From assembly GCA_018830295.1 (NCBI GenBank), contig JAHJSM010000001.1, positions 1,980 through 65,979 of the forward strand: a DNA stretch of 64,000 nucleotides, read 5' to 3'. Made by a program: the position numbers and the translations under genes. Below, piece by piece: positions 2,874-60,566 of this stretch; positions within the stretch are counted from its first letter, which is position 1, and each line of letters opens with the position of its first letter. Source of the stretch: Patescibacteria group bacterium (GTDB lineage: Bacteria; Patescibacteriota; Minisyncoccia; Portnoybacterales; UBA2143). The notes under the pieces were generated by a model, which saw only the letters and a list, made by a program, of their open reading frames with translations, made no database searches and had not been told where the DNA came from.

Positions 2874-3069
2874 TTTTTTTATTTTCTTTAATTTTTAAAT
2901 ACTTTCTAATATATTTTAACATTTTTTCAGAACATTTGCCACATAAAGCAAAAGACAGCCATTCTCCTCTTCCATTTATTCGACAATCAATCCACTTGGA
3001 TTTCTCGGATATAGAAGAATGTTTTTCTTTTTTTGTTTTATTGCAAATATCGCACTTTGTAATTTCCAT
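2857..3069 (-). CDS. Small zinc-ribbon-like protein (CxxC...CxxC)
   Basis: 70-aa ORF with the pairs CDIC ... CGKC. It overlaps the upstream gene by 17 nt. No recognisable family. Confidence 0.4.
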   Translation of the reverse strand: MEITKCDICNKTKKEKHSSISEKSKWIDCRINGRGEWLSFALCGKCSEKMLKYIRKYLKIKENKKNVRKK

Positions 3070-3123
3070 ACTGGCATCTTACCACAAAACGCCCAAAACA
3101 ACAAAACAAGGTTGTGGATAAAA

Positions 3124-6438: not shown

Positions 6439-7410
6439 TTATTTTCTTTTCAAAACCCTCATGACCGCTTTTTGAATGTGTTTTGCGGTTAATCCGAATT
6501 TATCCATTAATTCGTCAGTTGTTCCCGACTCGCCCCAGCGATCTTGAACGCCAATCATTTCCACGGGAACCGGACATTCTCTCGCCAAAACCTCGCAAAC
6601 GGCGCTCCCCATTCCACCCTGAACTTGATGGTCTTCCGCTGTGACGATCGCGCCTGTTCTTTCAGCCGCCTCAATAATCGTTTCTTCGTCAATCGGCTTG
6701 ATAGTGTGATTATTGATTACACCTATGGAAAGACCTTTTTCTTCTAAATTATGAGCCGCCAAAAGCGCTTCGTGAACAGTCGGGCCGCAAGCGATAATTG
6801 TCGCGTCAGCGCCCTTGCGGAAAACATTCGCTTTTCCAATTTTAAAAGGTGTTTCTTTTGTGGTAAAAATCGGTGTCGCTTCTCGCGCGAACCTCAAATA
6901 GACCGGTCCGTTCATTTCCCCCGCCGCGATTGTCGCTTTTTTCGTCTCAATCATATCACAAGGAGCCAAAACAGTCATATTAGGCAAACAGCGAGTAATG
7001 GCGATATCTTCCAGTCCTTGATGAGTAGCGCCATCCGCTCCGACGGAAATCCCCGCATGCGCGCCAGTTAATTTAACATTCGCCTTGTTATAGGCGACGC
7101 TAATTCGTATCTGGTCCCAGTTCCGCCCCGGACAAAAAACCGAATAAGTTGAAGCAAAAGGAACCTTCCCCGCCAAAGCCAATCCAACCGCCACGCCCGC
7201 CATATTCTGCTCGGCAATCCCGCATTGAATAAACCTGTCCGGATATTTATCCCTAAACCAATCAACCCTCGTTGAGGCGGTTAAATCAGCGCCCAAAGCG
7301 ACCACATTCTCGTTTTTATCCCCAAGTTCAACCAACCCCTCGCCGAACCCGTCGCGAGTCGGCTTTTGTTCTAACTTTTCTTTTTGATAAACATTTTTGT
7401 CTAAGTTCAT
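6439..7410 (-). CDS. Transketolase, C-terminal (pyrimidine-binding) subunit. The ORF-track start at 7461 is an artefact of the upstream palindromic repeat; the likely start is M18 (MNLDKN...)
   Basis: Pyrimidine-binding and C-terminal domain motifs (GIAEQNM, GPTHQG-like GATHQG). The first 17 codons of the tracked ORF (MGAAPATGAAP...) are the translated repeat. Confidence 0.85.
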   Translation of the reverse strand: MNLDKNVYQKEKLEQKPTRDGFGEGLVELGDKNENVVALGADLTASTRVDWFRDKYPDRFIQCGIAEQNMAGVAVGLALAGKVPFASTYSVFCPGRNWDQIRISVAYNKANVKLTGAHAGISVGADGATHQGLEDIAITRCLPNMTVLAPCDMIETKKATIAAGEMNGPVYLRFAREATPIFTTKETPFKIGKANVFRKGADATIIACGPTVHEALLAAHNLEEKGLSIGVINNHTIKPIDEETIIEAAERTGAIVTAEDHQVQGGMGSAVCEVLARECPVPVEMIGVQDRWGESGTTDELMDKFGLTAKHIQKAVMRVLKRK

Positions 7411-7428
7411 AATATTATTGGTTAAATT

Positions 7429-7459
7429 GGGGGCTGCCCCCGTTGCGGGGGCAGCCCCC
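7429..7459. repeat. Family-A GC-rich perfect palindrome GGGGGCTGCCCCC-GTTGC-GGGGGCAGCCCCC
   Basis: Read directly; 13-bp arms. It lies in the spacer between the two transketolase subunit genes. Confidence 0.95.
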
Positions 7460-7467
7460 AAACTTAC

Positions 7468-8316
7468 TTAATCATTTTCACTTTTAATCTTTCCGCCTAA
7501 AGTCCTTAAACAAGCAAGCGCTTTCTTTGCTTCTTCAGGGCAAGGCGTTTTGCCGTGCCATGAATATTCCCATTCTATAAAATCAACTCCCTTGCCCGGA
7601 ATCGTATGGGCAATAATCAAAGTTGGTTTCTCAAAAATCGCTTTTGATTTATTGCAAGCGTCAATAATTTCCCTAATATTATGCCCGTCAACATCCAAAA
7701 CATGCCACCCAAACGCCTCGTATTTTTCTTTGAGCGGCTCTATTGGCATAACATCTTCTGTATAACCGTCAATTTGAATATTATTCCTATCCATAATTTG
7801 CGTCAGATTAAAAAGACGATACTTGCCCGCAAACATAACCGCTTCCCAAACCTGACCCTCATTATGTTCGCCGTCGCTCCCTAAACACCAAACCCAATTA
7901 TCTTTTTTATCAATCTTGCTAAACGAATAAGCCATTCCGCAAGCGATTGACAACCCCTGCCCCAAAGAACCGCCCGAGGTCTCAAGCCCCGGCAATTCCA
8001 ATCGGTTAGGATGTCCTTGCAAACGGCTGCCTAATTTTCGCAGTGTCTTTAATTCGCTCACGGGAAAATATCCCGCGCGCGCCATCGCCGCGTACATGAC
8101 TGGACAAATATGAGCGTTAGAAAGAATGAGGCGGTCTCTTTCTTCCCAGTCGGGTTTTTTGGGATTATGCTTCATTACCCCGCCTAAATAAAGAGCGGTA
8201 AAAACATCCGCCATCCCAAGCGACCCCGCCGAATGCCCCGACTTTGCTTCGGTCAGCATTTTAATAATATCCTCCCTAATCTCATTCGCCTTTTTGTCTA
8301 ATTCTTGTGTGTCCAT
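7468..8316 (-). CDS. Transketolase, N-terminal (thiamine diphosphate-binding) subunit
   Basis: GHSAGSLG and GSDGE...NEG motifs; 282 aa. Forms a split transketolase with the 6439-7410 product. Confidence 0.85.
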   Translation of the reverse strand: MDTQELDKKANEIREDIIKMLTEAKSGHSAGSLGMADVFTALYLGGVMKHNPKKPDWEERDRLILSNAHICPVMYAAMARAGYFPVSELKTLRKLGSRLQGHPNRLELPGLETSGGSLGQGLSIACGMAYSFSKIDKKDNWVWCLGSDGEHNEGQVWEAVMFAGKYRLFNLTQIMDRNNIQIDGYTEDVMPIEPLKEKYEAFGWHVLDVDGHNIREIIDACNKSKAIFEKPTLIIAHTIPGKGVDFIEWEYSWHGKTPCPEEAKKALACLRTLGGKIKSEND

Positions 8317-10847: not shown

Positions 10848-11381
10848 TTAACCCTCAAATCCACCTGTCACCCAATCCATTTCATTTTGCCAATTTCTGC
10901 TTGGGCAGCTCCATCCAGAACTTTCTGGATGAGGCCTGCCGCTTGTTTCCATATCTACAACACCTAAAACGAAAAATGCTCCTCGGGAAGAATCACAGCC
11001 AGAACTTCCTGCGCCGTAGCGATAATATCTATATCCGCCGCAAGATGCTGTAGTTTTTGGATCTCCCGATACGCTCGCTATAATTCCAGCTGTTTCTAAT
11101 GGCAAAATGAAAGGATCTCCGCTCCCTGGTCCACCGTTATATCCCACATCCCAGCCGCCACAATCATTATCTGTATTTCCTGGATAAACGCCATTGCTGT
11201 CATAATACAAATTCAAACCAAGAATTATTTGTCGCATATCTGATAATCTTGTCGCGTCCCGGCTCTTCTTCCGCGCGCTATTAATGCTGACCAAAACAAT
11301 GCTCGCCAAAATCCCGATAATAGCGATAACGACGAGAAGTTCAATTAGAGTAAAACCTTTTTTGTTTTTGAGATATTTCAT
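10848..11381 (-). CDS. Type IV pilin / pseudopilin-like protein with a prepilin N-terminal methylation motif
   Basis: KGFTLIELLVVIAIIGILASI at the N-terminus, with a Gly/Cys-rich C-terminal domain. Confidence 0.85.
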   Translation of the reverse strand: MKYLKNKKGFTLIELLVVIAIIGILASIVLVSINSARKKSRDATRLSDMRQIILGLNLYYDSNGVYPGNTDNDCGGWDVGYNGGPGSGDPFILPLETAGIIASVSGDPKTTASCGGYRYYRYGAGSSGCDSSRGAFFVLGVVDMETSGRPHPESSGWSCPSRNWQNEMDWVTGGFEG

Positions 11382-11389
11382 GCTAATTA

Positions 11390-11420
11390 GGGGGCTGCCC
11401 CCGCAACGGGGGCAGCCCCC
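11390..11420. repeat. Family-A palindrome (GCAAC spacer)
   Basis: Exact copy of GGGGGCTGCCCCCGCAACGGGGGCAGCCCCC, between the pilin start and the glutaredoxin stop. Confidence 0.95.
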
Positions 11421-11428
11421 GTCTTAAA

Positions 11429-11695: not shown

Positions 11696-11730
11696 GGGGA
11701 CAGTCCCCATTCAGAATGGGGACTGTCCCC
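11696..11730. repeat. Family-B palindrome GGGGACAGTCCCC-ATTCAGAAT-GGGGACTGTCCCC
   Basis: Read directly; 13-bp arms with a 9-nt spacer. Confidence 0.95.
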
Positions 11731-39793: not shown

Positions 39794-40954
39794 CTATATC
39801 CTCTTATCTTTTTTAATATCCTGCCTTATTTTCTCCATAAAATCAAACATAAAACGCAAATTATGAATTGTCGCCAGGCGCGCCGCGAGTATTTCTTTTG
39901 CTCTGAAAAGATGATGTAAATAGGCGCGAGTGAAATTTTGACAAGTATAACACTGGCAATTTTTCATAATTGGTTTTTTATCTATTTTATAAGTTGTTTT
40001 AAAAATATCCAATTTGCCTCGCTCAGTCAATAGCGTCCCATGCCTCGCCAGTCGCGTCGGCTCAACGCAGTCAAAAAGGTCAATTCCTCTTTTAACCGCT
40101 TCTCTAACATCTTCTAAATACCCAATACCTAATAAATGGCGCAGCTTGTTTTCGGGAAGATAGGGAATAATCCAATCAAGCGCCTTTTTCATCTCGCCTT
40201 TCCCAAACGAACCTCCTATTCCAAATCCATCAAAAGGCATTTCGCCGATAAAGCGCGCGCTTTCTTTTCTTAAATCCTCAAAAAGACCGCCTTGAACAAT
40301 GCCAAAAAGAAATTGATTATCTTTATTTTTCGCCTTTAAACATCTTTCTGCCCAGCGATGCGTCCGTCCCATCGCCTTTTTTGTGTAATCATAATCTGCC
40401 AAAGGAGAAGAACATTCATCAAAAGCGAAAATAATATCAGCGCCTAAGTCCTCTTGAATCTTGATTGAAATTTCTGGCGTAAAGCGATGCGCGGAACCGT
40501 CCAAATGAGAGGTAAAATCAACCCCCTCCTCATCAATCTTGACTAATGAAGCATGGGAGGAATGGGGACAGTCCCCAATTTTTGGGGACTGTCCCCATTC
40601 CTTTTCCCCCTCTTTCAAAATCTTACCAACCTTATCTTGAATCGCCATCCCTAAACTAAAAACCTGAAAACCGCCACTATCAGTCGCCGTCACTCCTTGC
40701 CAATTCATAAATTTATGCAGCCCGCCCATCTTCTTTACAATTTTATTCCCCGGCTGAAGATACAAATGATAAGCGTTAGCCAAAACGCCCTCAAAACCAA
40801 TTTTTTTAATATCTTCCGGGGTTAATCCTTTAACCGACGCCTTAGTCGCCACGGGAAAAAACGCCGGCGTTCTCATTACCCCGTTAGCGGTTTTAATCAC
40901 TCCCAACCGCGCCTGCGATTTTGAATGTTTTTTTGTAATTTTGAAAAATGACAT
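39794..40954 (-). CDS. tgt: Queuine tRNA-ribosyltransferase. The likely start is M17 (MSFFKIT...); the tracked N-terminus MGAAPVAGAAP is repeat-derived. The gene carries an in-frame 33-nt palindromic insertion
   Basis: DSGGFQV, FDEC and CxCxxC...H zinc site motifs, collinear with E. coli Tgt. Confidence 0.9.
   Translation of the reverse strand: MSFFKITKKHSKSQARLGVIKTANGVMRTPAFFPVATKASVKGLTPEDIKKIGFEGVLANAYHLYLQPGNKIVKKMGGLHKFMNWQGVTATDSGGFQVFSLGMAIQDKVGKILKEGEKEWGQSPKIGDCPHSSHASLVKIDEEGVDFTSHLDGSAHRFTPEISIKIQEDLGADIIFAFDECSSPLADYDYTKKAMGRTHRWAERCLKAKNKDNQFLFGIVQGGLFEDLRKESARFIGEMPFDGFGIGGSFGKGEMKKALDWIIPYLPENKLRHLLGIGYLEDVREAVKRGIDLFDCVEPTRLARHGTLLTERGKLDIFKTTYKIDKKPIMKNCQCYTCQNFTRAYLHHLFRAKEILAARLATIHNLRFMFDFMEKIRQDIKKDKRI
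40564..40596. repeat. Family-B palindrome GGGGACAGTCCCC-AATTTTT-GGGGACTGTCCCC lying inside the tgt coding sequence (33 nt, in frame)
   Basis: Read directly. It translates as ...EWGQSPKIGDCPH... within a region that is about 27 aa longer than in E. coli Tgt. Confidence 0.9.
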
Positions 40955-40969
40955 AAATTTATGCTTGTT

Positions 40970-41000
40970 GGGGGCTGCCCCCGCAACGGGGGCAGCCCCC
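40970..41000. repeat. Family-A palindrome (GCAAC spacer)
   Basis: Exact copy, in the tgt / SpoU methyltransferase spacer. Confidence 0.95.
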
Positions 41001-41006
41001 AACTCT

Positions 41007-41462
41007 TTATTCTCTTATTTTATATCCCGCCACTCCAAACGCGACTACCACATTAAGCGACTCTTTCTTCCCCGCCATCGGCAAATGAATAATCTTATCT
41101 GATTTTTTCAAAACCGAAAGCGAGACGCCTTTAACTTCATTTCCAATCACCAAAGCCATCGGAAATTTCGGCTTGAATTTATTATAAGCGACGCTATTTT
41201 TCGTCTGCTCTAAAGCGACGATAAAAACGCCTTCTTTCTTAAGTTTGTCAATGACTCGCCATATTTGCGAATGATATTCCCACGGAATATTTTTTTCCGC
41301 GCCTAAAGCGGTCTTTGAAATTTTATCTCGCGGCGGCTTTCCGCAAATCCCGCATAAAAAAATTTTATCAACGCCCAAAGCATCGGCTGTCCTAAAGACC
41401 GAACCGATATTCTCCAAACTGCGAATATTATCGCAAACAACATAAAATTTATTTTTTCCCAT
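41007..41462 (-). CDS. SpoU/TrmH-family RNA 2'-O-methyltransferase. The likely start is M18; the tracked N-terminus is repeat-derived
   Basis: NIGSVFRTADALG and the C-terminal SPOUT knot motifs (LVIGNE, LNVVVA). Confidence 0.8.
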   Translation of the reverse strand: MGKNKFYVVCDNIRSLENIGSVFRTADALGVDKIFLCGICGKPPRDKISKTALGAEKNIPWEYHSQIWRVIDKLKKEGVFIVALEQTKNSVAYNKFKPKFPMALVIGNEVKGVSLSVLKKSDKIIHLPMAGKKESLNVVVAFGVAGYKIRE

Positions 41463-41476
41463 ATCGTCCTGAGTTT

Positions 41477-41507
41477 GGGGGCTGCCCCCGCAGCGGGGGC
41501 AGCCCCC
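41477..41507. repeat. Family-A palindrome (GCAGC spacer)
   Basis: GGGGGCTGCCCCCGCAGCGGGGGCAGCCCCC. Confidence 0.95.
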
Positions 41508-41557
41508 AAACAAATCAAAGTTAAAGGGCTGTCGGCATTTCCAACAACCCTTTTTTG

Positions 41558-43972: not shown

Positions 43973-45103
43973 TTACATCTCCAGCTCATTCCGCCCGCAA
44001 ATCTCCGCATAAACGCGCGCGCTTCGCCTGACCCGTCTCTCCATTGTTTTGTAATCCACCTCCACTAATCCAAATCTCGGCCAAAAACCTTTATCCCACT
44101 CAAAATTATCAATCAGCGACCAGTGTAAATATCCCTTCACATTTACTCCATTCTTAATCGCTTTGTGAATCCAAAATAAATGCTCTTTAATAAATTTTTC
44201 TCTCCTTTTGTCTTGAGCGTCGGCTAATCCGTTTTCGGTAATATAAATCGGCTTTTCGTATTTTTCCAAATCCTTGAGAACATAATAAATGCCTTTTGGA
44301 TAAATTTCCCAACCCATATCAGTAAGTTCTTTGTTTTTGTTTTGGTTAAACCTGAACCACTTATAATAGTTAAGACCGATAAAATCCTGCTTCTCTTTAA
44401 TTTTATTCAGAAAATATTTATTCCAAAAATAATCAGCGAACTTTGCCAACAATCCGCCCTCAAAATAGATATTGTTTTTAGCGACGCCCACTTGGCAATC
44501 CAAGTCAATCAAATGCAAGGAACGATAAGCCAAGTGATGCGCTTTGGCTAAATTATTCAAAACCTTAAAATATTTAAAAATATTTTTATTCTGCGGCGTC
44601 CATTTTCCTGTCAAAAAAGATTGCGCCGTGTAAATATTCGGCTCGTTCAAAGTAATCCAAAAATCAACCAAATCAAATAAATTCTCGCTAATAATTTTTA
44701 CAAATCTATCAAAATAATAAGGCGCCTTTGGATTAAGCCACCCGCCTTTTTCTGCGAACCAAATAGGCAAGGTCCAATGATTAAGCGTGACAAATGGTTC
44801 TATTCCTCTTTTTTTCAAAGCCAAAAGAACTTGGCGGTAATGTTCAATTTCTCCCTTATTAATCATCCCTTCCTTCGGCTCAATCCGCGACCACTCAATT
44901 GAAAAACGATGCGCATTATGATTAAGCGATTTGGCAAGAGCAAAATCCTCCTCAAATCTCTGATAATGCTCGCAAGCCCGGCCAGCATCCCCTTTCTCCC
45001 ACTCCGACCAATTATTAACATTCCCGCCCTCAACCTGATGAGCGGCCGTCCCCGCCCCCCACAAAAACCCGTCTGGAAATTTATATGTTTTAATTTTAGA
45101 CAT
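43973..45103 (-). CDS. GH1-family beta-glucosidase. The likely start is M25 (MSKIKTYKFPDGFLWG...)
   Basis: FLWGAGTAAHQVEG N-terminal signature, TLNEP acid/base motif and ITENG nucleophile motif. Confidence 0.85.
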   Translation of the reverse strand: MSKIKTYKFPDGFLWGAGTAAHQVEGGNVNNWSEWEKGDAGRACEHYQRFEEDFALAKSLNHNAHRFSIEWSRIEPKEGMINKGEIEHYRQVLLALKKRGIEPFVTLNHWTLPIWFAEKGGWLNPKAPYYFDRFVKIISENLFDLVDFWITLNEPNIYTAQSFLTGKWTPQNKNIFKYFKVLNNLAKAHHLAYRSLHLIDLDCQVGVAKNNIYFEGGLLAKFADYFWNKYFLNKIKEKQDFIGLNYYKWFRFNQNKNKELTDMGWEIYPKGIYYVLKDLEKYEKPIYITENGLADAQDKRREKFIKEHLFWIHKAIKNGVNVKGYLHWSLIDNFEWDKGFWPRFGLVEVDYKTMERRVRRSARVYAEICGRNELEM

Positions 45104-45115
45104 TTTCTTAAATTT

Positions 45116-45146
45116 GGGGGCTGCCCCCGCAACGGGGGCAGCCCCC
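45116..45146. repeat. Family-A palindrome (GCAAC spacer)
   Basis: Exact copy, between the GH1 start and the mutM stop. Confidence 0.95.
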
Positions 45147-45153
45147 AAATTTC

Positions 45154-45960
45154 TTACCTCTGACATCGCGGACAAAAATACGATGAACGACTGCCTGTTT
45201 TTACCCTTTTAATTTTTTCTCCGCAAACGCGGCAATCTTCTCCCTCACGCTGATAAACCTTCGCAAGCGGCATATACCCTCCCTTTCTCCCGTAAGCGTC
45301 AAGATAATCCCTGTCCGAACTCCCTTTCTTTTTTAAAGCAAGCGACAAAACATTTTTAATCGCCTCATAAATCGCCTTTATCTCTTTTTCTTTTAATGTC
45401 CCCGCGTTTCTATCAGGCAAAACCCCGGCAGAAAACAAAATCTCGCAAGCGTAAATATTGCCAATCCCCGCGATAAATTTTTGGTCCATCAAAAGCGTTT
45501 TAATGACCGACTTTTTCCTTTTCTCAATCCGTTCCTTAAATAAATTAAAAGAAAAACTTTTATCAAGCGGCTCGGGACCAAAATTCATTTCATCAAAAAA
45601 ATTGCCCAAATCTTTTTCCGAAATCAATTTAACAAAACCAAACTTCCGCAAGTCATTATGAAGCAAATAACTCCCGTCCGTAAAATAATAAACAATATGA
45701 CTATGCTTCCCCACCTCTCCGTTAAAAATCAGTTGCCCGCTCAATTTCAAATGAATAACTAAAAAGTTCCCACTAGACAGTTTAATCAAAAGCAACTTCG
45801 CCCGCCTCTCAACACCCTCTATTTTCGCCCCCACGACCGCCTTCTTAAATTTCCCCAAAGACGCCTTAACCATTCCTGGCAAAGAAACCAAAACCCGCTC
45901 AATCTTTTTCCCTTTGAGCGCCTGCCCCAACTGCCTCCCAATTGTCTCCACCTCCGGCAT
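45154..45960 (-). CDS. mutM: Formamidopyrimidine-DNA glycosylase
   Basis: MPEVET N-terminus (the catalytic Pro after Met) and a C-terminal CxxC...CxxC zinc finger. Confidence 0.85.
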   Translation of the reverse strand: MPEVETIGRQLGQALKGKKIERVLVSLPGMVKASLGKFKKAVVGAKIEGVERRAKLLLIKLSSGNFLVIHLKLSGQLIFNGEVGKHSHIVYYFTDGSYLLHNDLRKFGFVKLISEKDLGNFFDEMNFGPEPLDKSFSFNLFKERIEKRKKSVIKTLLMDQKFIAGIGNIYACEILFSAGVLPDRNAGTLKEKEIKAIYEAIKNVLSLALKKKGSSDRDYLDAYGRKGGYMPLAKVYQREGEDCRVCGEKIKRVKTGSRSSYFCPRCQR

Positions 45961-45980
45961 TTCCGGCATAGTAATTAATT

Positions 45981-47033
45981 TTATCTTGGCGTTTCTTTGT
46001 ATTGAGTAGCGACGAGAACGCCTTTTAGCGCATCTATGTCTTCTAAGACCACTCCTGTCCCGCGGACGACTGCCGTAAGGGGGTCTTCAACCAATTTAAC
46101 TGGCATTTCTGTTTGCTCGGCAATTAATCGGTCAAGCCCTCGCAACAAACCGCCACCGCCCACTAAAAAGATACCTCGGGTCATAATATCAGCCACTAAT
46201 TCCGGAGGCGTTTCTTCAATAGTCGCTTTAATTGAATTAACTAATAATTTAATTGAATGATTTAACGCTTTTCGGATTTGGCTGTCATTCACAATAACCT
46301 CTTTTGGCAGGCCGGTAATAATATCTCTCCCTCTCATCGCTGTTTCTATTGGTTCATCTAACGCGCAAGCCGAACCAACCGCTATCTTTATATCCTCCGC
46401 CGTTTTTTCGCCTAAAAGAAGATTAAATTCTTCGCGCGCGTAATTAACAATATCCTCGTTAAATTTATCTCCGGCAATCCGCAAACTGCGGCTAACGACA
46501 ATCCCGCCCAGAGAAATGACAGCGACTTCCGATGTCCCGCCGCCAATATCAACGATCATATTGCCCGTCGCTTCTTGAACAGGCATTCTGACTCCAATCG
46601 CCGCCGCCATCGGTTCTTCAATTAGATAGACCTCGCGCGCGCCGGCGTTTCTGACCGCATCTTCAACCGCCCTTTTCTCCACTTCCGTCACGCCCGAAGG
46701 GATGCCAACCACGACGCGCGGTCGCGGCAAAATAGAAAAACTTTCTCGGTGAACTTTATCAATAAAAAATTTGAGCATCTGCTCGGTCACTTCAAAATCG
46801 GAAACAACCCCCGCCACCAAAGGCCGCGAAGCGACAATGTGCGCCGGCGTCCGTCCAACCATTTTTTTCGCTTCCTGCCCAATAGACAAAATCTGACCTG
46901 TTTTTTGGTTAATCGCCACGACTGACGGCTCATTAATAACAATCCCTCGTCCTTTGACATAGACGAGAGTGTTCGCTGTCCCTAAATCAATTCCGATATC
47001 CTTTGAAAAAAATCCGAAAAATTTATTAAGCAT
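45981..47033 (-). CDS. mreB: Rod-shape-determining protein MreB
   Basis: DLGTANTLV and DIGGGT actin-fold motifs. Confidence 0.9.
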   Translation of the reverse strand: MLNKFFGFFSKDIGIDLGTANTLVYVKGRGIVINEPSVVAINQKTGQILSIGQEAKKMVGRTPAHIVASRPLVAGVVSDFEVTEQMLKFFIDKVHRESFSILPRPRVVVGIPSGVTEVEKRAVEDAVRNAGAREVYLIEEPMAAAIGVRMPVQEATGNMIVDIGGGTSEVAVISLGGIVVSRSLRIAGDKFNEDIVNYAREEFNLLLGEKTAEDIKIAVGSACALDEPIETAMRGRDIITGLPKEVIVNDSQIRKALNHSIKLLVNSIKATIEETPPELVADIMTRGIFLVGGGGLLRGLDRLIAEQTEMPVKLVEDPLTAVVRGTGVVLEDIDALKGVLVATQYKETPR

Positions 47034-48279: not shown

Positions 48280-48310
48280 GGGGGCTGCCCCCGCAACGGG
48301 GGCAGCCCCC
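48280..48310. repeat. Family-A palindrome (GCAAC spacer)
   Basis: Exact copy, upstream of the proS start. Confidence 0.95.
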
Positions 48311-51125: not shown

Positions 51126-52052
51126 CTAAAATTCCATCATCAGAACTTCCAAAGATAATCGCGCGTTGATGCTTGAATTGGACAAAAGATTGTCTGTCTT
51201 TCTAATCGCTTGAATAATATTTTTTAATTTTGGCAAAGAATAAAATCCGCTAGCTCGCGACGACTCGGGGTAAAGAGATAAATCAGCGCATCCAGCGGCC
51301 GATAAAAGCAAATCCCTAAACCAGATTGTCCAATATCCTAAATTCCTTCGCGCTTCGGGCGTGTTTTTCGCCGCTTTCTCGGCATACTGACATCGCTCGT
51401 TGAAGTTCGCCCTTAATAATTTTTCTAAATCAGCAATCGCTTCATTTTGTTCTTCTAAAAGTTTCGGATTTTTGCAATATTCTATCGCCAAGCCCGGACG
51501 GCCATTCGCCAACCGCGCCGCTTTCTTCGCCTCTGAACTGCCGCAAAGAGAAACGAGCCCTTTTTCTATTTCCTCTCCTGCCACCGGCAAAAAATTAATC
51601 AACTGGCAGCGAGAAACAATTGTCGGCAGAAGCGATTGGAAAGACGAGGTGATTAAAATCAAAACCGTTCCGCCCGTCGGCTCTTCCAAAGTTTTTAAAA
51701 GACAATTGCTCGCCTCTCTTGTCATCCGATCCGCCTGATTGATAATCGCGATTTTATGAGACGACTGACAGGCGAACAAGCTTATCCGCCGCTGGGCTTC
51801 CCTAATTTGCGGAATGCCTATTTCCATCTCTTTTTGAACGCCCTCTTTTTCAATAATTTGCGGCTCAATGATTAAAATATCTGGATGAACCGTTTCGCTA
51901 ATTTCTATCCCCGTCAACATCTTCACGAATTCAGACGCGACCGCCTTCTTGCCTAAATGAGCGGGACCGGAAAATAAATAGGCGTGAGAAAGCCGCTCAT
52001 GCTCAATGCTCTTTTCTAAGAAATTTAAAATTCGTTTATGCCCGATTATCAT
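51126..52052 (-). CDS. holB: DNA polymerase III delta-prime subunit-like AAA+ protein. The likely start is M17
   Basis: Clamp-loader P-loop-like GPAHLGKK and SRC motif; the tracked N-terminus MGTVPATGTVP is repeat-derived. Confidence 0.7.
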   Translation of the reverse strand: MIIGHKRILNFLEKSIEHERLSHAYLFSGPAHLGKKAVASEFVKMLTGIEISETVHPDILIIEPQIIEKEGVQKEMEIGIPQIREAQRRISLFACQSSHKIAIINQADRMTREASNCLLKTLEEPTGGTVLILITSSFQSLLPTIVSRCQLINFLPVAGEEIEKGLVSLCGSSEAKKAARLANGRPGLAIEYCKNPKLLEEQNEAIADLEKLLRANFNERCQYAEKAAKNTPEARRNLGYWTIWFRDLLLSAAGCADLSLYPESSRASGFYSLPKLKNIIQAIRKTDNLLSNSSINARLSLEVLMMEF

Positions 52053-52067
52053 AAGGAAATGAAATTT

Positions 52068-52098
52068 GGGGACTGTCCCTGTTGCGGGGACAGTCCCC
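52068..52098. repeat. Family-B palindrome with the A-type spacer (GGGGACTGTCCCT-GTTGC-GGGGACAGTCCCC)
   Basis: Read directly. It links the A and B families, which share the GTTGC/GCAAC spacer. Confidence 0.95.
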
Positions 52099-52116
52099 AA
52101 TCTGGTTTACATTATA

Positions 52117-53229
52117 TCACGCTACCTTATTTTCCTCAATGATTTTTATAATCGCCTCCTTTATTCCTATCTCAAACCTCTCCTCGGAAAATTTCTCAGC
52201 TCTTTTTCTGATAACAGCAGGACTGTAGGCGTCAAAATTTATTAGCAACCTGCGAACGCCATCCGCCAGAACTTCTGTCACTGGCTCGTCAAAAAATTCG
52301 CCAGTGATTCCTTCTATGACCGTTTCAACGGCGCCGCCTTTGCGGTATGCTAAAACCGGTTTGCCAAAACTCATCGCTTCAACAGGCGCGATGCCAAAAT
52401 CATCCTCGCCGGGAAAAATAAAAGCGCGGCAATTTTTAAGACATTCTCGCGCTGTCTCATCCGATTGCCAGCCCAAAAACCTAACATTAGAATGAGCCAT
52501 TTTTTTAAGCCGTTTAGAATCAGGACCTTCGCCGATAATAACCAAAGGCAATTCCAATTTATTAAAAGCGTCAATCGCCAAATCAATCCTCTTGTAAGGG
52601 GTTAATTGGGAAATAATCAAAAAGAAGCCATCATCGCGAGCGGACTGCCAATCAGCGCCCGTCAAAAAAGCCGGCGGGTAAATCACTTTTGCTTCCCGCC
52701 CGTAATATTTTTTAATCCGCTCGGCTGTTGTTTTTGAATTGGCGATAAAATAGTCAACGCGATTAGAGGCCGCTCTATCCCACATTCGGATATAGTGCAT
52801 GACAATCTTAATCGCCGCGTTAGTGAAAAATCCTTTTTTCTGCTCTTTAATATAGCGGCAATACCTGTCCCAACTAAAACTCATCGGGCTGTGACAATAG
52901 CAAATATGAACCGTTTTCGGTCGTGTAATCACGCCCTTGATAAAACTACTTGAAGAGGAAATAACCAAATCAAAATCCCTCAAATCAATCGTCTCGGCCG
53001 CCGTCGGAATAAAAGGCAAAAGATATTTCTGCCGCCGACGCCAAAACTTCGGAAACTTCTGTAAAAAAGAAGTCCTGATTTTTTTCCCGGGAAAATACTT
53101 TCCCATTTTCTCCTCATCATAAAGAAGAGTATAAATCTCCGCCTTTGGAAAAATTTTCCGCAAACATAAAAAGACCCTCTCGGCCCCTCCAAAGCGGATT
53201 AAATAATCATGCAATAAAGCGATTTTCAT
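52117..53229 (-). CDS. GT4-family glycosyltransferase. The likely start is M17 (MKIALLHDY...), giving an ATGA overlap with the upstream gene
   Basis: GT-B fold; the EDDFGIAPVEAMSFGKPV segment fits the E-x7-E GT4 motif. Confidence 0.8.
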   Translation of the reverse strand: MKIALLHDYLIRFGGAERVFLCLRKIFPKAEIYTLLYDEEKMGKYFPGKKIRTSFLQKFPKFWRRRQKYLLPFIPTAAETIDLRDFDLVISSSSSFIKGVITRPKTVHICYCHSPMSFSWDRYCRYIKEQKKGFFTNAAIKIVMHYIRMWDRAASNRVDYFIANSKTTAERIKKYYGREAKVIYPPAFLTGADWQSARDDGFFLIISQLTPYKRIDLAIDAFNKLELPLVIIGEGPDSKRLKKMAHSNVRFLGWQSDETARECLKNCRAFIFPGEDDFGIAPVEAMSFGKPVLAYRKGGAVETVIEGITGEFFDEPVTEVLADGVRRLLINFDAYSPAVIRKRAEKFSEERFEIGIKEAIIKIIEENKVA

Positions 53230-54356
53230 CTTGACATATTTTGTTTGGTTAAAACTCCCAGCGTTTCCCGCGCGCATTTTTCCCAGGAGAATTTTTTAAT
53301 GTTCTGAAAGCCCTTTTCAATTAAACCCCTTCTCAACTCCCCGTCGCTTATTACTTTATACACTGCTTCTGATATTTTTTCAATGTTTTTTGGCGAAACG
53401 AAGAGCGCGCCCTCGCCCGCTACCTCCGGCAAAGAAGATGTCTCTGAAGCAATGACTGGACAACCCATCGCCTGCGCTTCCAAAATCGGCATTCCAAAGC
53501 CCTCGTAAAAAACAGGAAAAAGAAAAGCGGCGGCGTTTTTTAACAACTCCCATTTCTTCGCCTCGCTCACAAAACCCATTTCAACAATATCTTTATTCCC
53601 CGCAATTCTCCCAGCGAACGCCTCATAACCATACCCTCTTCCCCCCGCCAAAACCAACTTATGCGGCAACCCGTATTTTTTTTTAAACAACTCAAACGCC
53701 CCAATCATCCCCCCAATATTCTTCTTCCCCTCCAACCGCCCAATAAAAAGAATATAGGGACTGGAAAATGGGGGCTGCCCCCGAAACGGGGGGCAGCCCC
53801 CATTTTTATCAGGGGACAGTCCCCCGCCGCGGGGGCTGCCCCCGTCTTCATAGCCGTGATAAACAACTGATATTTTCTCCGGATTGGCTTTATATATTTT
53901 AACTAAATCGTTTTTAGTGTTTTGGGAAATGGCGATAACGCGCGCTGAATTTTTTAACGCGTATTTTGCGCTCCAACGGAGATACGCCAAACGCTTTTTG
54001 GGATACATTTCGGGGTAATGCTCATACTCCAATCCGTGAATAGTTGTGACTGAGTTTTTTGGATGAACAAGCGGCAGAACATGGACAGGAATAAAAAGAA
54101 TATCTGGCTCACGCGCCGCCATTTCAGCGGACAACCTGCATTGCGTCCACGACGGCAAGCCCCAGCGAAGCCGCTTAATTTTAAAATTCTCCGGCAATGG
54201 AAAATCAAAAATTTTGTTAAAAGGAGAATATAAAACAAAACGATGCTCTTCGCTTTCCTTAAGCATCGTTAAATGTTTAATTAACTGATAAGTATATTCT
54301 TCAACGCCCGTCCGCGGCTCAACAAAAGCCGCCATAGCGTTAATGCCGATTTTCAT
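53226..54356 (-). CDS. GT4-family glycosyltransferase carrying an in-frame 75-nt insertion built from palindromic repeats
   Basis: The GT4 C-terminal domain (FYEGFGMPILEAQAMGCPVIAS). The segment DGGSPRGGGLSPDKNGGCPPFRGQPPFS is encoded by the repeats at 53770-53844. Confidence 0.75.
   Translation of the reverse strand: MKIGINAMAAFVEPRTGVEEYTYQLIKHLTMLKESEEHRFVLYSPFNKIFDFPLPENFKIKRLRWGLPSWTQCRLSAEMAAREPDILFIPVHVLPLVHPKNSVTTIHGLEYEHYPEMYPKKRLAYLRWSAKYALKNSARVIAISQNTKNDLVKIYKANPEKISVVYHGYEDGGSPRGGGLSPDKNGGCPPFRGQPPFSSPYILFIGRLEGKKNIGGMIGAFELFKKKYGLPHKLVLAGGRGYGYEAFAGRIAGNKDIVEMGFVSEAKKWELLKNAAAFLFPVFYEGFGMPILEAQAMGCPVIASETSSLPEVAGEGALFVSPKNIEKISEAVYKVISDGELRRGLIEKGFQNIKKFSWEKCARETLGVLTKQNMSR
53770..53844. 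repeat. Family-A palindrome (GAAAC spacer, one extra G) fused to a chimeric B-left/A-left unit (GGGGACAGTCCCCC-GCCGC-GGGGGCTGCCCCC), all inside a coding sequence
   Basis: Read directly; 75 nt, a multiple of three. Confidence 0.9.
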
Positions 54357-54360
54357 AGGT

Positions 54361-55374
54361 TTACATCTGTTTCTTAGACATAATGCTTCTTTTGTAAACA
54401 TCTAAATGTTCCAAAGCAAGACCAGTTCCTTTTGCTACGCAAAGCAGGGGCTCTTTCGCGATGCGGCAATTAACGCCTGTCGCTTCGGTAATTAGAGCGT
54501 CCAAATTTCTTAACAACGCGCCGCCGCCGCTTAAAACCATACCCATATCCATAATATCAGCCACCAGTTCCGGAGGCGTCCCGCGCAAAACGGTTTTGAC
54601 CGTTTTAATAATTTCTCTAAGATTTTCCGACATCGCTTCCGTGATCTCGTTGCTTTTAACTTCAATCGTTTTAGGCAGTCCGCCGACCAAATCGCGACCC
54701 TGGATTTTCAAAGTCGTTTCTTCTTTTTGCGGCAAAGCGCTCCCTATTTTAATTTTAATCCTTTCCGCCGTTCCGTCGCCAATTGCTAAATTATGTTTTT
54801 TTCTAATATACTCGCTAATCGCCTGGTCAAGTTTGTCTCCGCCCACCCGAACCGATTCGCAGGAAACGATCCCGCCTAAAGAAATAACAGCCATCTCCGA
54901 AGTTCCGCCGCCAATGTCAATAATCATGTTACCCGCCGGTTTGTTGATGGCAAGCCCCGCCCCAATCGCCGCCAAAACCGGCTCTTTGACGATGTATGCG
55001 TTCTTGGCGCCCGCTTTAATAGTCGCCTCAATTACAGCTCGCCTTTCGGTGGACGAAACGCCCGCCGGAACAGAAACCATAATGTCTGGCTTAATAATCC
55101 GCCAACGCCCCAAAACCTTGCTGATAAAATAGCGAAGCATCGCCTCAGTAATGCGATAATCGGCGATTACCCCATCCTTCATTGGTCTGGAAACATTAAT
55201 CGTTTCAGGCGCTTTCCCAAGCATTTCTTTCGCTTGATTGCCAACCGCCAAAATTCTATTGTCTTCAATAGAAACAGCCACCACCGTCGGCTCGTTGACA
55301 ACAACGCCCTTTTTAGGAAGAAAAACCAAAGTATTAGCCGTCCCTAAGTCAATACCAATTTTTGTGATAAACAT
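54361..55374 (-). CDS. Second MreB-family actin homolog (Mbl/MreB paralog)
   Basis: DLGTANTLV and DIGGGTSE motifs; about 45% identical to the 45981-47033 product by eye. Confidence 0.85.
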   Translation of the reverse strand: MFITKIGIDLGTANTLVFLPKKGVVVNEPTVVAVSIEDNRILAVGNQAKEMLGKAPETINVSRPMKDGVIADYRITEAMLRYFISKVLGRWRIIKPDIMVSVPAGVSSTERRAVIEATIKAGAKNAYIVKEPVLAAIGAGLAINKPAGNMIIDIGGGTSEMAVISLGGIVSCESVRVGGDKLDQAISEYIRKKHNLAIGDGTAERIKIKIGSALPQKEETTLKIQGRDLVGGLPKTIEVKSNEITEAMSENLREIIKTVKTVLRGTPPELVADIMDMGMVLSGGGALLRNLDALITEATGVNCRIAKEPLLCVAKGTGLALEHLDVYKRSIMSKKQM

Positions 55375-57701: not shown

Positions 57702-57706
57702 TTTTT

Positions 57707-57786
57707 GGGGACAGTCCCTCGCAACAGAGAGGGACTGTCCCCGAAACGCGTGATCGGGGGCTGCCCCCGCAACGGGGGCAGCCCCC
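57707..57786. repeat. Composite element copy 1: B-palindrome (GGGGACAGTCCCTC-GCAACAGAG-AGGGACTGTCCCC), linker GAAACGCGTGATC, then A-palindrome
   Basis: Read directly; AGATTA follows it. Confidence 0.95.
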
Positions 57787-57792
57787 AGATTA

Positions 57793-58000
57793 AAGATCTC
57801 TGTTATAAGGTCAGACCTTCTGAGCGCGACCTTTAGAAAGAAATAAAAGGTCAGACCTTTCCATCAGTTTGTCACGAGAAAATAAACTGTTACGAGTTGT
57901 CGTCTTGAAAGGTCTGACCTTTTATTTCTTTCAGAAGGTCTGACATCGCAAGTAGCGACATTTCTTAAGGTCGCGCTTGAGAGGTCTGACCTTTGAATTT
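57793..58000. repeat. About 200-bp nested imperfect palindrome built from AAGGTCAGACCTT / AAGGTCTGACCTT units between convergent genes
   Basis: At least six copies of the 13-bp palindrome. Arms of about 60 nt (57810-57862 against the reverse complement of 57905-57996) with a 35-nt extra segment in the right arm. Confidence 0.8.
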
Positions 58001-58008
58001 TGAATTGA

Positions 58009-58115
58009 AAAACCCCGCGAAAGCGGGGTTTTATCTTTGGGGACAGTCCCTCGCCGCGAGGGACTGTCCCCGGAACGCGTGATCGGGGGCTGCCCCCGCA
58101 ACGGGGGCAGCCCCC
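58009..58115. repeat. Hairpin AAAACCCCGCGAAAGCGGGGTTTTATC followed by composite element copy 2 (B-palindrome, GGAACGCGTGATC, A-palindrome)
   Basis: Read directly. The ORF-track peptide MGTVPRREGLSPERVIGGCPRNGGSPQI is its translation. Confidence 0.95.
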
Positions 58116-58187
58116 AGATTAACTTTGAAATGAAAAAAGGGATATTCAATTATGAATATCCCTTTTATTTTTTTGAAAAACGAACAA

Positions 58188-60451: not shown

Positions 60452-60566
60452 GGGGACAGTCCCTCGCAACAGAGAGGGACTGTCCCCGGAACGCGTGAAT
60501 GGGGGCTGCCCCCGCAACGGGGGCAGCCCCCAGATTAAAAAAACCCCGCGAAAGCGGGGTTTTATC
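60452..60566. repeat. Composite element copy 3 (B-palindrome, GGAACGCGTGAAT, A-palindrome), followed by the same CCCCGCGAAAGCGGGG hairpin
   Basis: Read directly; it has the same components, in the same orientation, as copy 2. Confidence 0.95.

Follow-up and report, generated by a model that had tools for sequence, protein, structure and literature searches.

Here we describe a block of palindromic repeats that is translated in frame within a glycosyltransferase gene on contig JAHJSM010000001.1 (assembly GCA_018830295.1) of a Patescibacteria group bacterium. The window, i.e. the whole stretch of DNA analyzed, measures 64,000 nt (positions 1,980 to 65,979 of the contig). The gene encodes a family 4 glycosyltransferase (GT4, GT-B fold), and the block consists of two hairpin units, an A-type unit and a unit with mixed arms, situated between the two Rossmann domains of the protein (Table 1). 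Very probably the block is selfish DNA of the repetitive extragenic palindromic (REP) type, or of the REPIN type in which two REPs form a hairpin, that became fixed in a tolerant protein linker.

The open reading frame (ORF) of the gene spans 53226..54401 on the minus strand, with a likely start (MKIGINA) at 54356. The characteristics of a GT4 enzyme are present: two Rossmann domains, matches to both family domains and an E-x7-E motif (EGFGMPILE, within the C-terminal domain), of which E285 and E293 are invariant among 34 orthologs. The match to PF00534 starts at profile position 15, from which it follows that the insert has taken the place of the usual lead-in of this domain. An AlphaFold model built on 34 orthologs has a predicted local distance difference test score (pLDDT) of 87.5 and a predicted template modelling score (pTM) of 0.86, and Foldseek matches it to the retaining GT-B/GT4 enzymes MshA, BshA, PimA and WaaG. 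The pLDDT drops below 55 only at residues ~171-200: the coil between the last strand of the N-terminal domain (E162-164, just ahead of the insert) and the first strand of the C-terminal domain. The predicted structure thus agrees with the initial annotation, which had proposed the interdomain linker as the site of the insert; in the model the insert is a disordered loop, with a Rossmann domain on either side.

Ten full-length variants of the protein (97-100% identical, grouped in a 90% cluster) were retrieved from NCBI, JGI, ENA and Logan assemblies. The ORF is free of stop codons across both hairpins and the insert peptide is identical in 10/10 variants, so the earlier claim that the repeats are translated without frame disruption holds at the level of independent assemblies. 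Against two of the strain variants the ratio of non-synonymous to synonymous substitution rates (dN/dS) amounts to 0.085 and 0.26, with zero nucleotide changes inside the insert. The GT4 gene is kept under purifying selection.

Regarding the extent of the insert, the initial annotation described an inserted block of 75 nt (53770-53844) or 25 codons. The coordinates and the translation are correct, but the two units together with their spacer occupy 74 nt, base 53844 merely completing the 25 codons, and the peptide quoted for the block is 28 residues long. The translation (...VVYHGYEDGGSPRGGGLSPDKNGGCPPFRGQPPFSSPYILFIGRLE...) contains no stop codon. Folded as DNA, the 42-nt extended palindrome around the A unit reaches -23.3 kcal/mol (z -6.5); the mixed-arm unit, translated as GGSPRGGGLSP, forms an imperfect hairpin of -14.6 kcal/mol.

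Linker lengths among 111 orthologs lead to a smaller estimate of the sequence gained. The segment from HHG to PYILFIGR is mostly 15-17 residues long (minimum 13) against 32 residues in the window protein; the repeat-free base state is 13-17 residues, and in ~40% of the orthologs the linker exceeds 18 residues and carries repeat-like peptides. If the 14 codons of KNGGCPPFRGQPPF are removed, 18 residues remain, which is a normal length, and the window linker (...GGLSPD/SSPYILF, the slash marking the junction) aligns with that of ortholog P0005 (...KGLSPN/SPPYILF), also at the nucleotide level. The second, mixed-arm unit occupies or replaces positions of the base-state linker. It is therefore probable, judging from these alignments, that the net insertion equals the 42-nt extended A palindrome. 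Of the claimed 75-nt insertion it stands that the repeats are in frame; a net gain is demonstrable only for 42 nt, and a single 75-nt event is replaced by this gain next to an older unit.

Table 1. Features of the GT4 locus, of repeat units elsewhere in the window and of the linkers in orthologous loci. Positions refer to the window.
Feature	Position	Strand	Description
GT4 (GT-B fold) glycosyltransferase gene	53226-54356	-	376 residues; hosts the insert
N-terminal Rossmann domain, Glyco_transf_4 (PF13439)	53850-54308	-	residues 17-169 (Pfam)
C-terminal Rossmann domain, Glycos_transf_1 (PF00534)	53307-53762	-	residues 199-350 (Pfam)
A-type hairpin unit	53770-53801	+ (letters)	GGGGGCTGCCCCC-GAAACG-GGGGGCAGCCCCC; 32 nt, loop 6 nt; two palindromic arms GGGGGCWGCCCCC, 13 nt each, inverted orientation
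Spacer between the two units	53802-53811		ATTTTTATCA, 10 nt
Mixed-arm unit	53812-53843		GGGGACAGTCCCC-CGCCGC-GGGGGCTGCCCCC; left arm B-type, right arm A-type
Flank GTCTTC	53844-53849		codons E170-D171, adjoining the mixed-arm unit
Extended palindrome, perfect, 42 nt	53765-53806		AAAAT + 32-nt A hairpin + ATTTT; read as KNGGCPPFRGQPPF, 14 codons
Extended B-type palindrome, 43 nt	40559-40601		read in frame as EWGQSPKIGDCPH inside Tgt (39794-40957, -)
Canonical A hairpin, intergenic	7429-7459		upstream gene ends 8 nt before it
Further intergenic A copies	11390-11420, 40970-41000, 41477-41507, 45116-45146, 48280-48310
B hairpin, intergenic	52068-52098		between the second GT4 and holB
Another intergenic B hairpin	11696-11730
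Composite module B + 13 nt + A (family D2)	57707-57786; also 58039-58115, 60452-60531		adjoins canonical terminators
Canonical terminators beside repeats	58010-58035, 58135-58166, 60540-60563
Linker of L001			CAAAGGTTTGACCTTTG doublet
Linkers of L003, L040 and L004			CGGAGGTTSAACCTCCG
Linker of L004, additional			long GTCATTGCGAG... hairpin
Linker of L043			AAGGACWGTCCTT arms, dispersed elsewhere in L043 too

Both units belong to families that are dispersed over the window. A canonical A unit spans 31 nt and consists of two 13-nt arms (GGGGGC-W-GCCCCC), inverted around GCAAC/GTTGC; the doublet folds at -22.9 kcal/mol (DNA). B units are of A-like design with arms GGGGAC-W-GTCCCC (GGGGACWGTCCCC), a single compensatory base pair apart from the A arms, and each arm of either family is itself palindromic. 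Arm matches in the window number 42 for A (0.03 expected) and 19 for B (0.01 expected). In all, 17 units were counted in the window, distributed over 13 loci; 11 of the loci are intergenic, and 7 of these 11 lie at 5-18 nt past a stop codon. Over the window plus 34 A-bearing JGI metagenome contigs (160 kb) we counted 99 units: 63 A/A, 22 B/B and 14 whose arms are mixed or hybrid. The exact A hairpin has zero occurrences in 185,579 reference genomes, where a relaxed loop retrieves only two Patescibacteria/Portnoybacteria metagenome-assembled genomes (MAGs); the 34 contigs with the exact hairpin come from few JGI metagenomes.

Mixed-arm units recur with loops CGTCTTC, CGTCCGC and CGCCGC and often directly follow an A unit, for instance at L019:4943-5018, 3044-3121 and 7276-7354. 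The unit in the GT4 gene had been taken as a chimera demonstrating recombination between the two families; as it belongs to a recurring subtype, a one-off recombinant is rejected. Given that A and B arms are one compensatory base pair apart, recombination is possible, yet not demonstrated. What does set the linker copy apart is its loop: of the 63 A/A units, those with a 6-nt loop all belong to this one locus, in the window and in its strain variants L018 and L024. Because of this loop the extended palindrome measures 42 nt instead of 41, which would fit selection for a length that keeps the frame.

A/B/mixed units are stop-free in all six frames, which permits read-through within genes and leads to spurious ORF extensions. 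In mechanically derived ORFs at 51126-52100, 6439-7461, 39794-41002, 41007-41513 and 43973-45175 the 5' end is extended too far, as they run through stop-free hairpins, giving peptides such as MGTVPATGTVP… (from B hairpin 52068-52098) and LGAAPVAGAAP…; gene callers do likewise on the transposase discussed below (MGAAPATGAAPE…). Some terminal arms are followed by GTCTTA/ATCTTA, or TAAGAC/TAAGAT on the other strand (window 11402-11426; L008, L009, L015, L019, L029), and the stop codon of the upstream gene consequently appears to be part of a conserved repeat flank. The GTCTTC adjoining the mixed-arm unit of the GT4 gene is possibly the repeat's own flank as well, to judge from the tail statistics: it differs at one base from the recurrent GTCTTA (TAAGAC on the opposite strand), sparing an in-frame TAA.

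Other classes of element were considered for these hairpins. No direct (target-site) duplications flank any of the 17/17 window units, the flanks just extending the palindrome by 0-6 A/T pairs; an identity as miniature inverted-repeat transposable element, based on terminal inverted repeats with target-site duplication, was rejected for these 17 units. Transcription terminators were rejected also: the hairpins generally have no T-run on the transcribed strand, separate canonical terminators are located alongside, and one full hairpin only (the B copy at 52066-52100) passes a test for stem plus T-run. Regarding the GTAG/CGTC end tag of classical REPs, no GTAG was found beside A or B units, and CGTC occurs solely in loops of mixed-arm units.

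The GT4 gene is not the only coding sequence affected. The initial annotation counted another in-gene repeat in the window, which is confirmed by a B hairpin (40564-40596) inside Tgt, which lies within 34 extra residues as compared with T. maritima Tgt (2ash). Alignment to Pfam and PDB shows read-through copies in Tgt, DprA, GltX, a Mur ligase and a paralogous GT4 of the same population. In DprA a mixed-arm unit between the two domains is read as GMGAAPEDEGLSPREGMGAAPVAGAAPEA, a surface protein contains one read as DGSSPRDGGLPP, and in the paralogous GT4 the repeat resides in the same interdomain linker. A candidate at L011:497 was dropped, its frame appearing to be non-coding. Further instances were observed elsewhere: at L026:3522-5807 adjacent GT4 genes are fused in frame into one 761-residue ORF via an intergenic A hairpin (…TMAVLGKTGAAPVAGAAPIRSKMAIDA…), and the second of them has this interdomain linker occupied by a mixed-arm unit (VVYEGGVIQTGAAPESGGLPPNIQ…). 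On L050, near the transposase, A hairpins lie inside a 1221-residue surface protein with fn3, LTD and beta-propeller domains (7571-7601) and across the final codons of a sigma-70 family gene (11209-11239).

Orthologs of the GT4 protein show that its linker site has been occupied by at least four unrelated palindrome types (Table 1). No equally long, non-repeat linker, which the initial annotation had named as the observation that would speak against an insertion, was found among the orthologs examined as DNA: those with long linkers are built of palindromes. Two other loops (residues ~45-50 and 240-250, alignment columns 48-96 and 330-400) have a hypervariable length across orthologs and in some of these carry peptides typical of translated palindromes in the protein alignment, e.g. 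PPNPPLVKGGEEG and LPQPLLKEGSRSLPLELAPYLIRG. Ortholog P0007 (JGI contig of 13,775 nt) misses the whole linker and the start of the C-terminal domain (…VVHHGVS/YLPHKL…), which may reflect a repeat-mediated deletion or a pseudogene.

A Y1 transposase is encoded neither in the window nor in the 34 A-bearing metagenome contigs (160 kb). On L050, from an ENA contig of 744,622 nt, a Y1 transposase gene (P0375) is bracketed by canonical A hairpins at 9 nt before the ATG and 6 nt after the stop codon; its cluster-mate P0289 on L047 has them 9 nt before the ATG and 12 nt after the stop. L047 originates from metagenome Ga0180015, which is also the source of GT4 strain variant L024. The contig recorded for the exact GT4 protein P0122 likewise counts 744,622 nt, and NCBI accessions for transposase and GT4 pair by assembly (MBU2579502.1/MBU2579402.1 and MCG2809771.1/MCG2809126.1). 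The transposase scores 60.9 bits with Pfam Y1_Tnp (cut-off 23), 73.5 bits with NCBIfam NF047646 REP_Tyr_transpos (positions 3-146/146, cut-off 80) and 20.2 bits with the IS200 model; JGI names its homologs RayT. Most likely, as far as gene content and arrangement tell, a Y1/HUH transposase of the kind of the REP-associated tyrosine transposases (RAYTs) is the cognate mobilizing enzyme.

Similar arrangements are found in relatives. Bracketing of the transposase by lineage-specific palindromes recurs in L001, L042, L045, L048 and L049, and the transposase takes a conserved syntenic position (L045/L047, L001/L041). In L001, the closest ortholog locus with another palindrome, the Y1_Tnp gene is flanked by, and contains, its GT4-linker palindrome; the palindrome of the linker and that flanking the transposase coincide in two lineages (window and L001). 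On L045, from a Portnoybacteria reference MAG, a second Y1 type lies between identical 59-nt palindromes with TTGGAGCAGCTCCAA arms of A-arm-like architecture, and several ORFs among its homologs run into A-type or B-type arms; P0289 and P0375 are of this second type, through which alone the link to the A hairpins was established. Among 120 homologs of the L001-type family no A/B peptide signatures were detected. It was further observed that L001-type Y1 genes harbour, at L001:18503-18530 and L041:7161-7185, an in-frame copy of the palindrome that also flanks them (…DSYKGLTFGEI…); both lineages have it at one and the same site of the coding sequence.

Taken together, these results can be explained as follows. 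The genome of this Ca. Portnoybacteria-like member of the Patescibacteria carries 31-nt A hairpins with sister B and mixed-arm subtypes, which usually settle past stop codons, and a single RAYT-like Y1/HUH transposase encoded outside the window would act on these hairpins as single-stranded DNA. A copy landing in a gene would be read through, and to survive it would have to add a length divisible by three at a site that can accommodate a flexible Gly/Pro-rich loop; the interdomain linker of GT4 would satisfy both conditions. Here an older mixed-arm unit would fill the normal linker length, and the younger 42-nt A palindrome (14 codons) would have been added after the split from the P0002 and P0005 lineages. 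The insert itself is probably without function.

Several observations weigh against this explanation. That L050 and the window appear to represent one genome is based on equal contig size and accession series with no overlap, the transposase stays below the NCBIfam equivalog cut-off (73.5 vs 80), and its link with the hairpins is an association, mobilization by it being putative. The 42-nt boundary depends on the alignment with P0005, a single ortholog of 75% identity, in a linker that evolves fast, and the neutrality of the insert is assumed. Furthermore, REPINs are typically ~100 nt long but the units here 31-36 nt (spacer 5 nt), and the A and B hairpins have no GTAG/CGTC end tag as in classical REP superfamilies.

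Alternatively, the linker hairpins might have been co-opted, for ribosome pausing between domains during co-translational folding, for attenuation, or as an adaptive flexible or interaction-prone Gly/Pro loop. The whole insert is predicted to fold stably as RNA (-69.4 kcal/mol, z -5.6), is located exactly at the domain boundary and is invariant in 10 strain variants of which the flanks vary, and palindromes are present in the same linker in many lineages. However, at 2% divergence a stretch of 75 nt should show ~1-1.5 changes, hence the invariance is not significant; palindrome sequences are wholly different between lineages, many orthologs have a short plain linker, and identical units occupy unrelated sites of unrelated proteins. 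A selection filter for tolerant sites explains the recurrence equally well. We regard co-option as unlikely. Some other route into the linker, such as gene conversion or template switching with intergenic copies as donors, slippage of the replication machinery at hairpins or mobilization by a different element, is to be considered too: the second unit fills the base-state length as if earlier sequence were overwritten and no length added, mixed arms are common, the end tag is lacking and neither the window nor the A-bearing contigs encode the transposase. Yet the one Y1 transposase of the 744,622-nt contig lies between canonical A hairpins, and the same holds for lineage-specific palindromes in the five relatives named above, making a route without RAYT very improbable. 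Finally, although contigs often break at repeats, P0124, a partial protein, stops directly behind the insert and the transposase contigs are short, an assembly or frame artefact or a decaying pseudogene has a negligible chance and is rejected, given the same peptide in ten independent assemblies from four sources, two intact domains, an invariant catalytic motif and dN/dS well below 1.

Selfish DNA of the REP/REPIN-RAYT type thus remains our explanation, and it is best judged against described systems. REPs are extragenic elements close to the 3' ends of ORFs (PMC3733652); those within genes, reported from other phyla, are mostly dimers encoding 20-30 residues (Di Nocera et al. 2013, PMC3733652). 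REPINs consist of two inverted palindromic REPs of ~14 bp that form a hairpin, typically ~100 nt in all, and the REPtron, a transposase gene flanked by the same REPs, defines REP/REPIN-RAYT systems (Bertels and Rainey, bioRxiv 10.1101/2021.07.10.451892). The system described here is alike in its short GC-rich palindromes with many near-identical dispersed copies, its unit made up of a doublet of inverted ~13-nt palindromic arms, the preference for positions just 3' of ORFs, the clustering into composites, the Y1/HUH transposase gene bracketed by the same hairpins (L047, L050) and the occasional in-gene copies, mostly dimers encoding 20-30 residues. Besides unit size and end tag, it differs in the high share of copies read through in housekeeping-type genes, in a genome of ~0.74 Mb. 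The literature searched yielded nothing relevant on REP or RAYT in the candidate phyla radiation/Patescibacteria.

A functional resemblance exists with the Rickettsia palindromic elements (RPEs; Ogata et al. 2000, 2002, summarized in PMC10969869), which are palindromic selfish DNA of ~100-150 bp, confined to Rickettsia and located in frame at fold-compatible sites of many unrelated housekeeping genes, with no cognate transposase known there. The likeness is limited to in-frame, fold-compatible insertion in a reduced genome; units of 31-43 nt, an unrelated sequence, a host from the Patescibacteria and a candidate cognate transposase are different here.

Two further systems offer parallels. The bacterial interspersed mosaic elements (BIMEs) of enterobacteria are REP mosaics: fixed two-hairpin composites with a conserved spacer, comparable to B + 13 nt + A at 57707-57786, though of different sequence. 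Yeast mitochondria contain mobile GC clusters with in-frame copies in var1; GC-rich palindromes are tolerated in frame in an AT-rich genome in both cases, but the clusters are organellar, eukaryotic, of unrelated sequence and of a different proposed mobility.

Concerning the surroundings, 5043 homologs of the GT4 protein were found, with thousands in Patescibacteria, and a murA-mreB-GT4-GT4-holB order is common to the orthologs examined. The window has two MreB paralogs (45981-47033 and 54361-55374), one of them directly upstream of GT4; their DNA segments are 71-79% identical (families D6, D9). The syntenic slot of the L001-type transposase (mreB2-fpg, ~45969-45981) is empty in the window and measures 11 nt. 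Repeats are crowded in the convergent intergenic region 57702-58187, which contains two B+A composites and 3-5 copies of AAAGGTCWGACCTTT (57800-58000); in relatives, the palindrome type of these copies (core AGGT-YNR-ACCT) flanks the Y1 transposase of the L001/L041/L042 type. Possibly a REPIN-RAYT pair was lost here and the copies are what remains of it in a state of decay.

Summarizing, REP/RPE-type insertion into genes is a known phenomenon of which the GT4 case is a further example, and no new kind of biological mechanism is revealed. Particular here are the host phylum, the very short units, the absence of a GTAG/CGTC tag and the repeated occupation of one linker by lineage-specific hairpins. 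The findings add a compact REPIN-RAYT-like system, built of 31-nt units, from a phylum where none is described in the literature searched, and a comparative series (one linker, different lineage-specific hairpins) for studying site choice or survival. In practice, what looks like an odd Gly/Pro-rich stretch of a Patescibacteria protein can be a mobile hairpin that is translated, and not native sequence. In such genomes this bears on the annotation of domains, on predicted structures and on gene calling, which is prone to spurious N-terminal extensions and to gene fusions. As a tentative extension, possible but rather less likely true than false, it might be argued that interdomain linkers of conserved Patescibacteria genes are long-lived nests for REPIN-type hairpins, in which the active family of each lineage, co-evolving with a vertically inherited Y1 transposase, inserts into or overwrites its predecessor. 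If so, the rules by which RAYT-type insertion is targeted could be tested on the GT4 linker series, and part of the protein linker sequence of this phylum would be continually rebuilt from selfish DNA.

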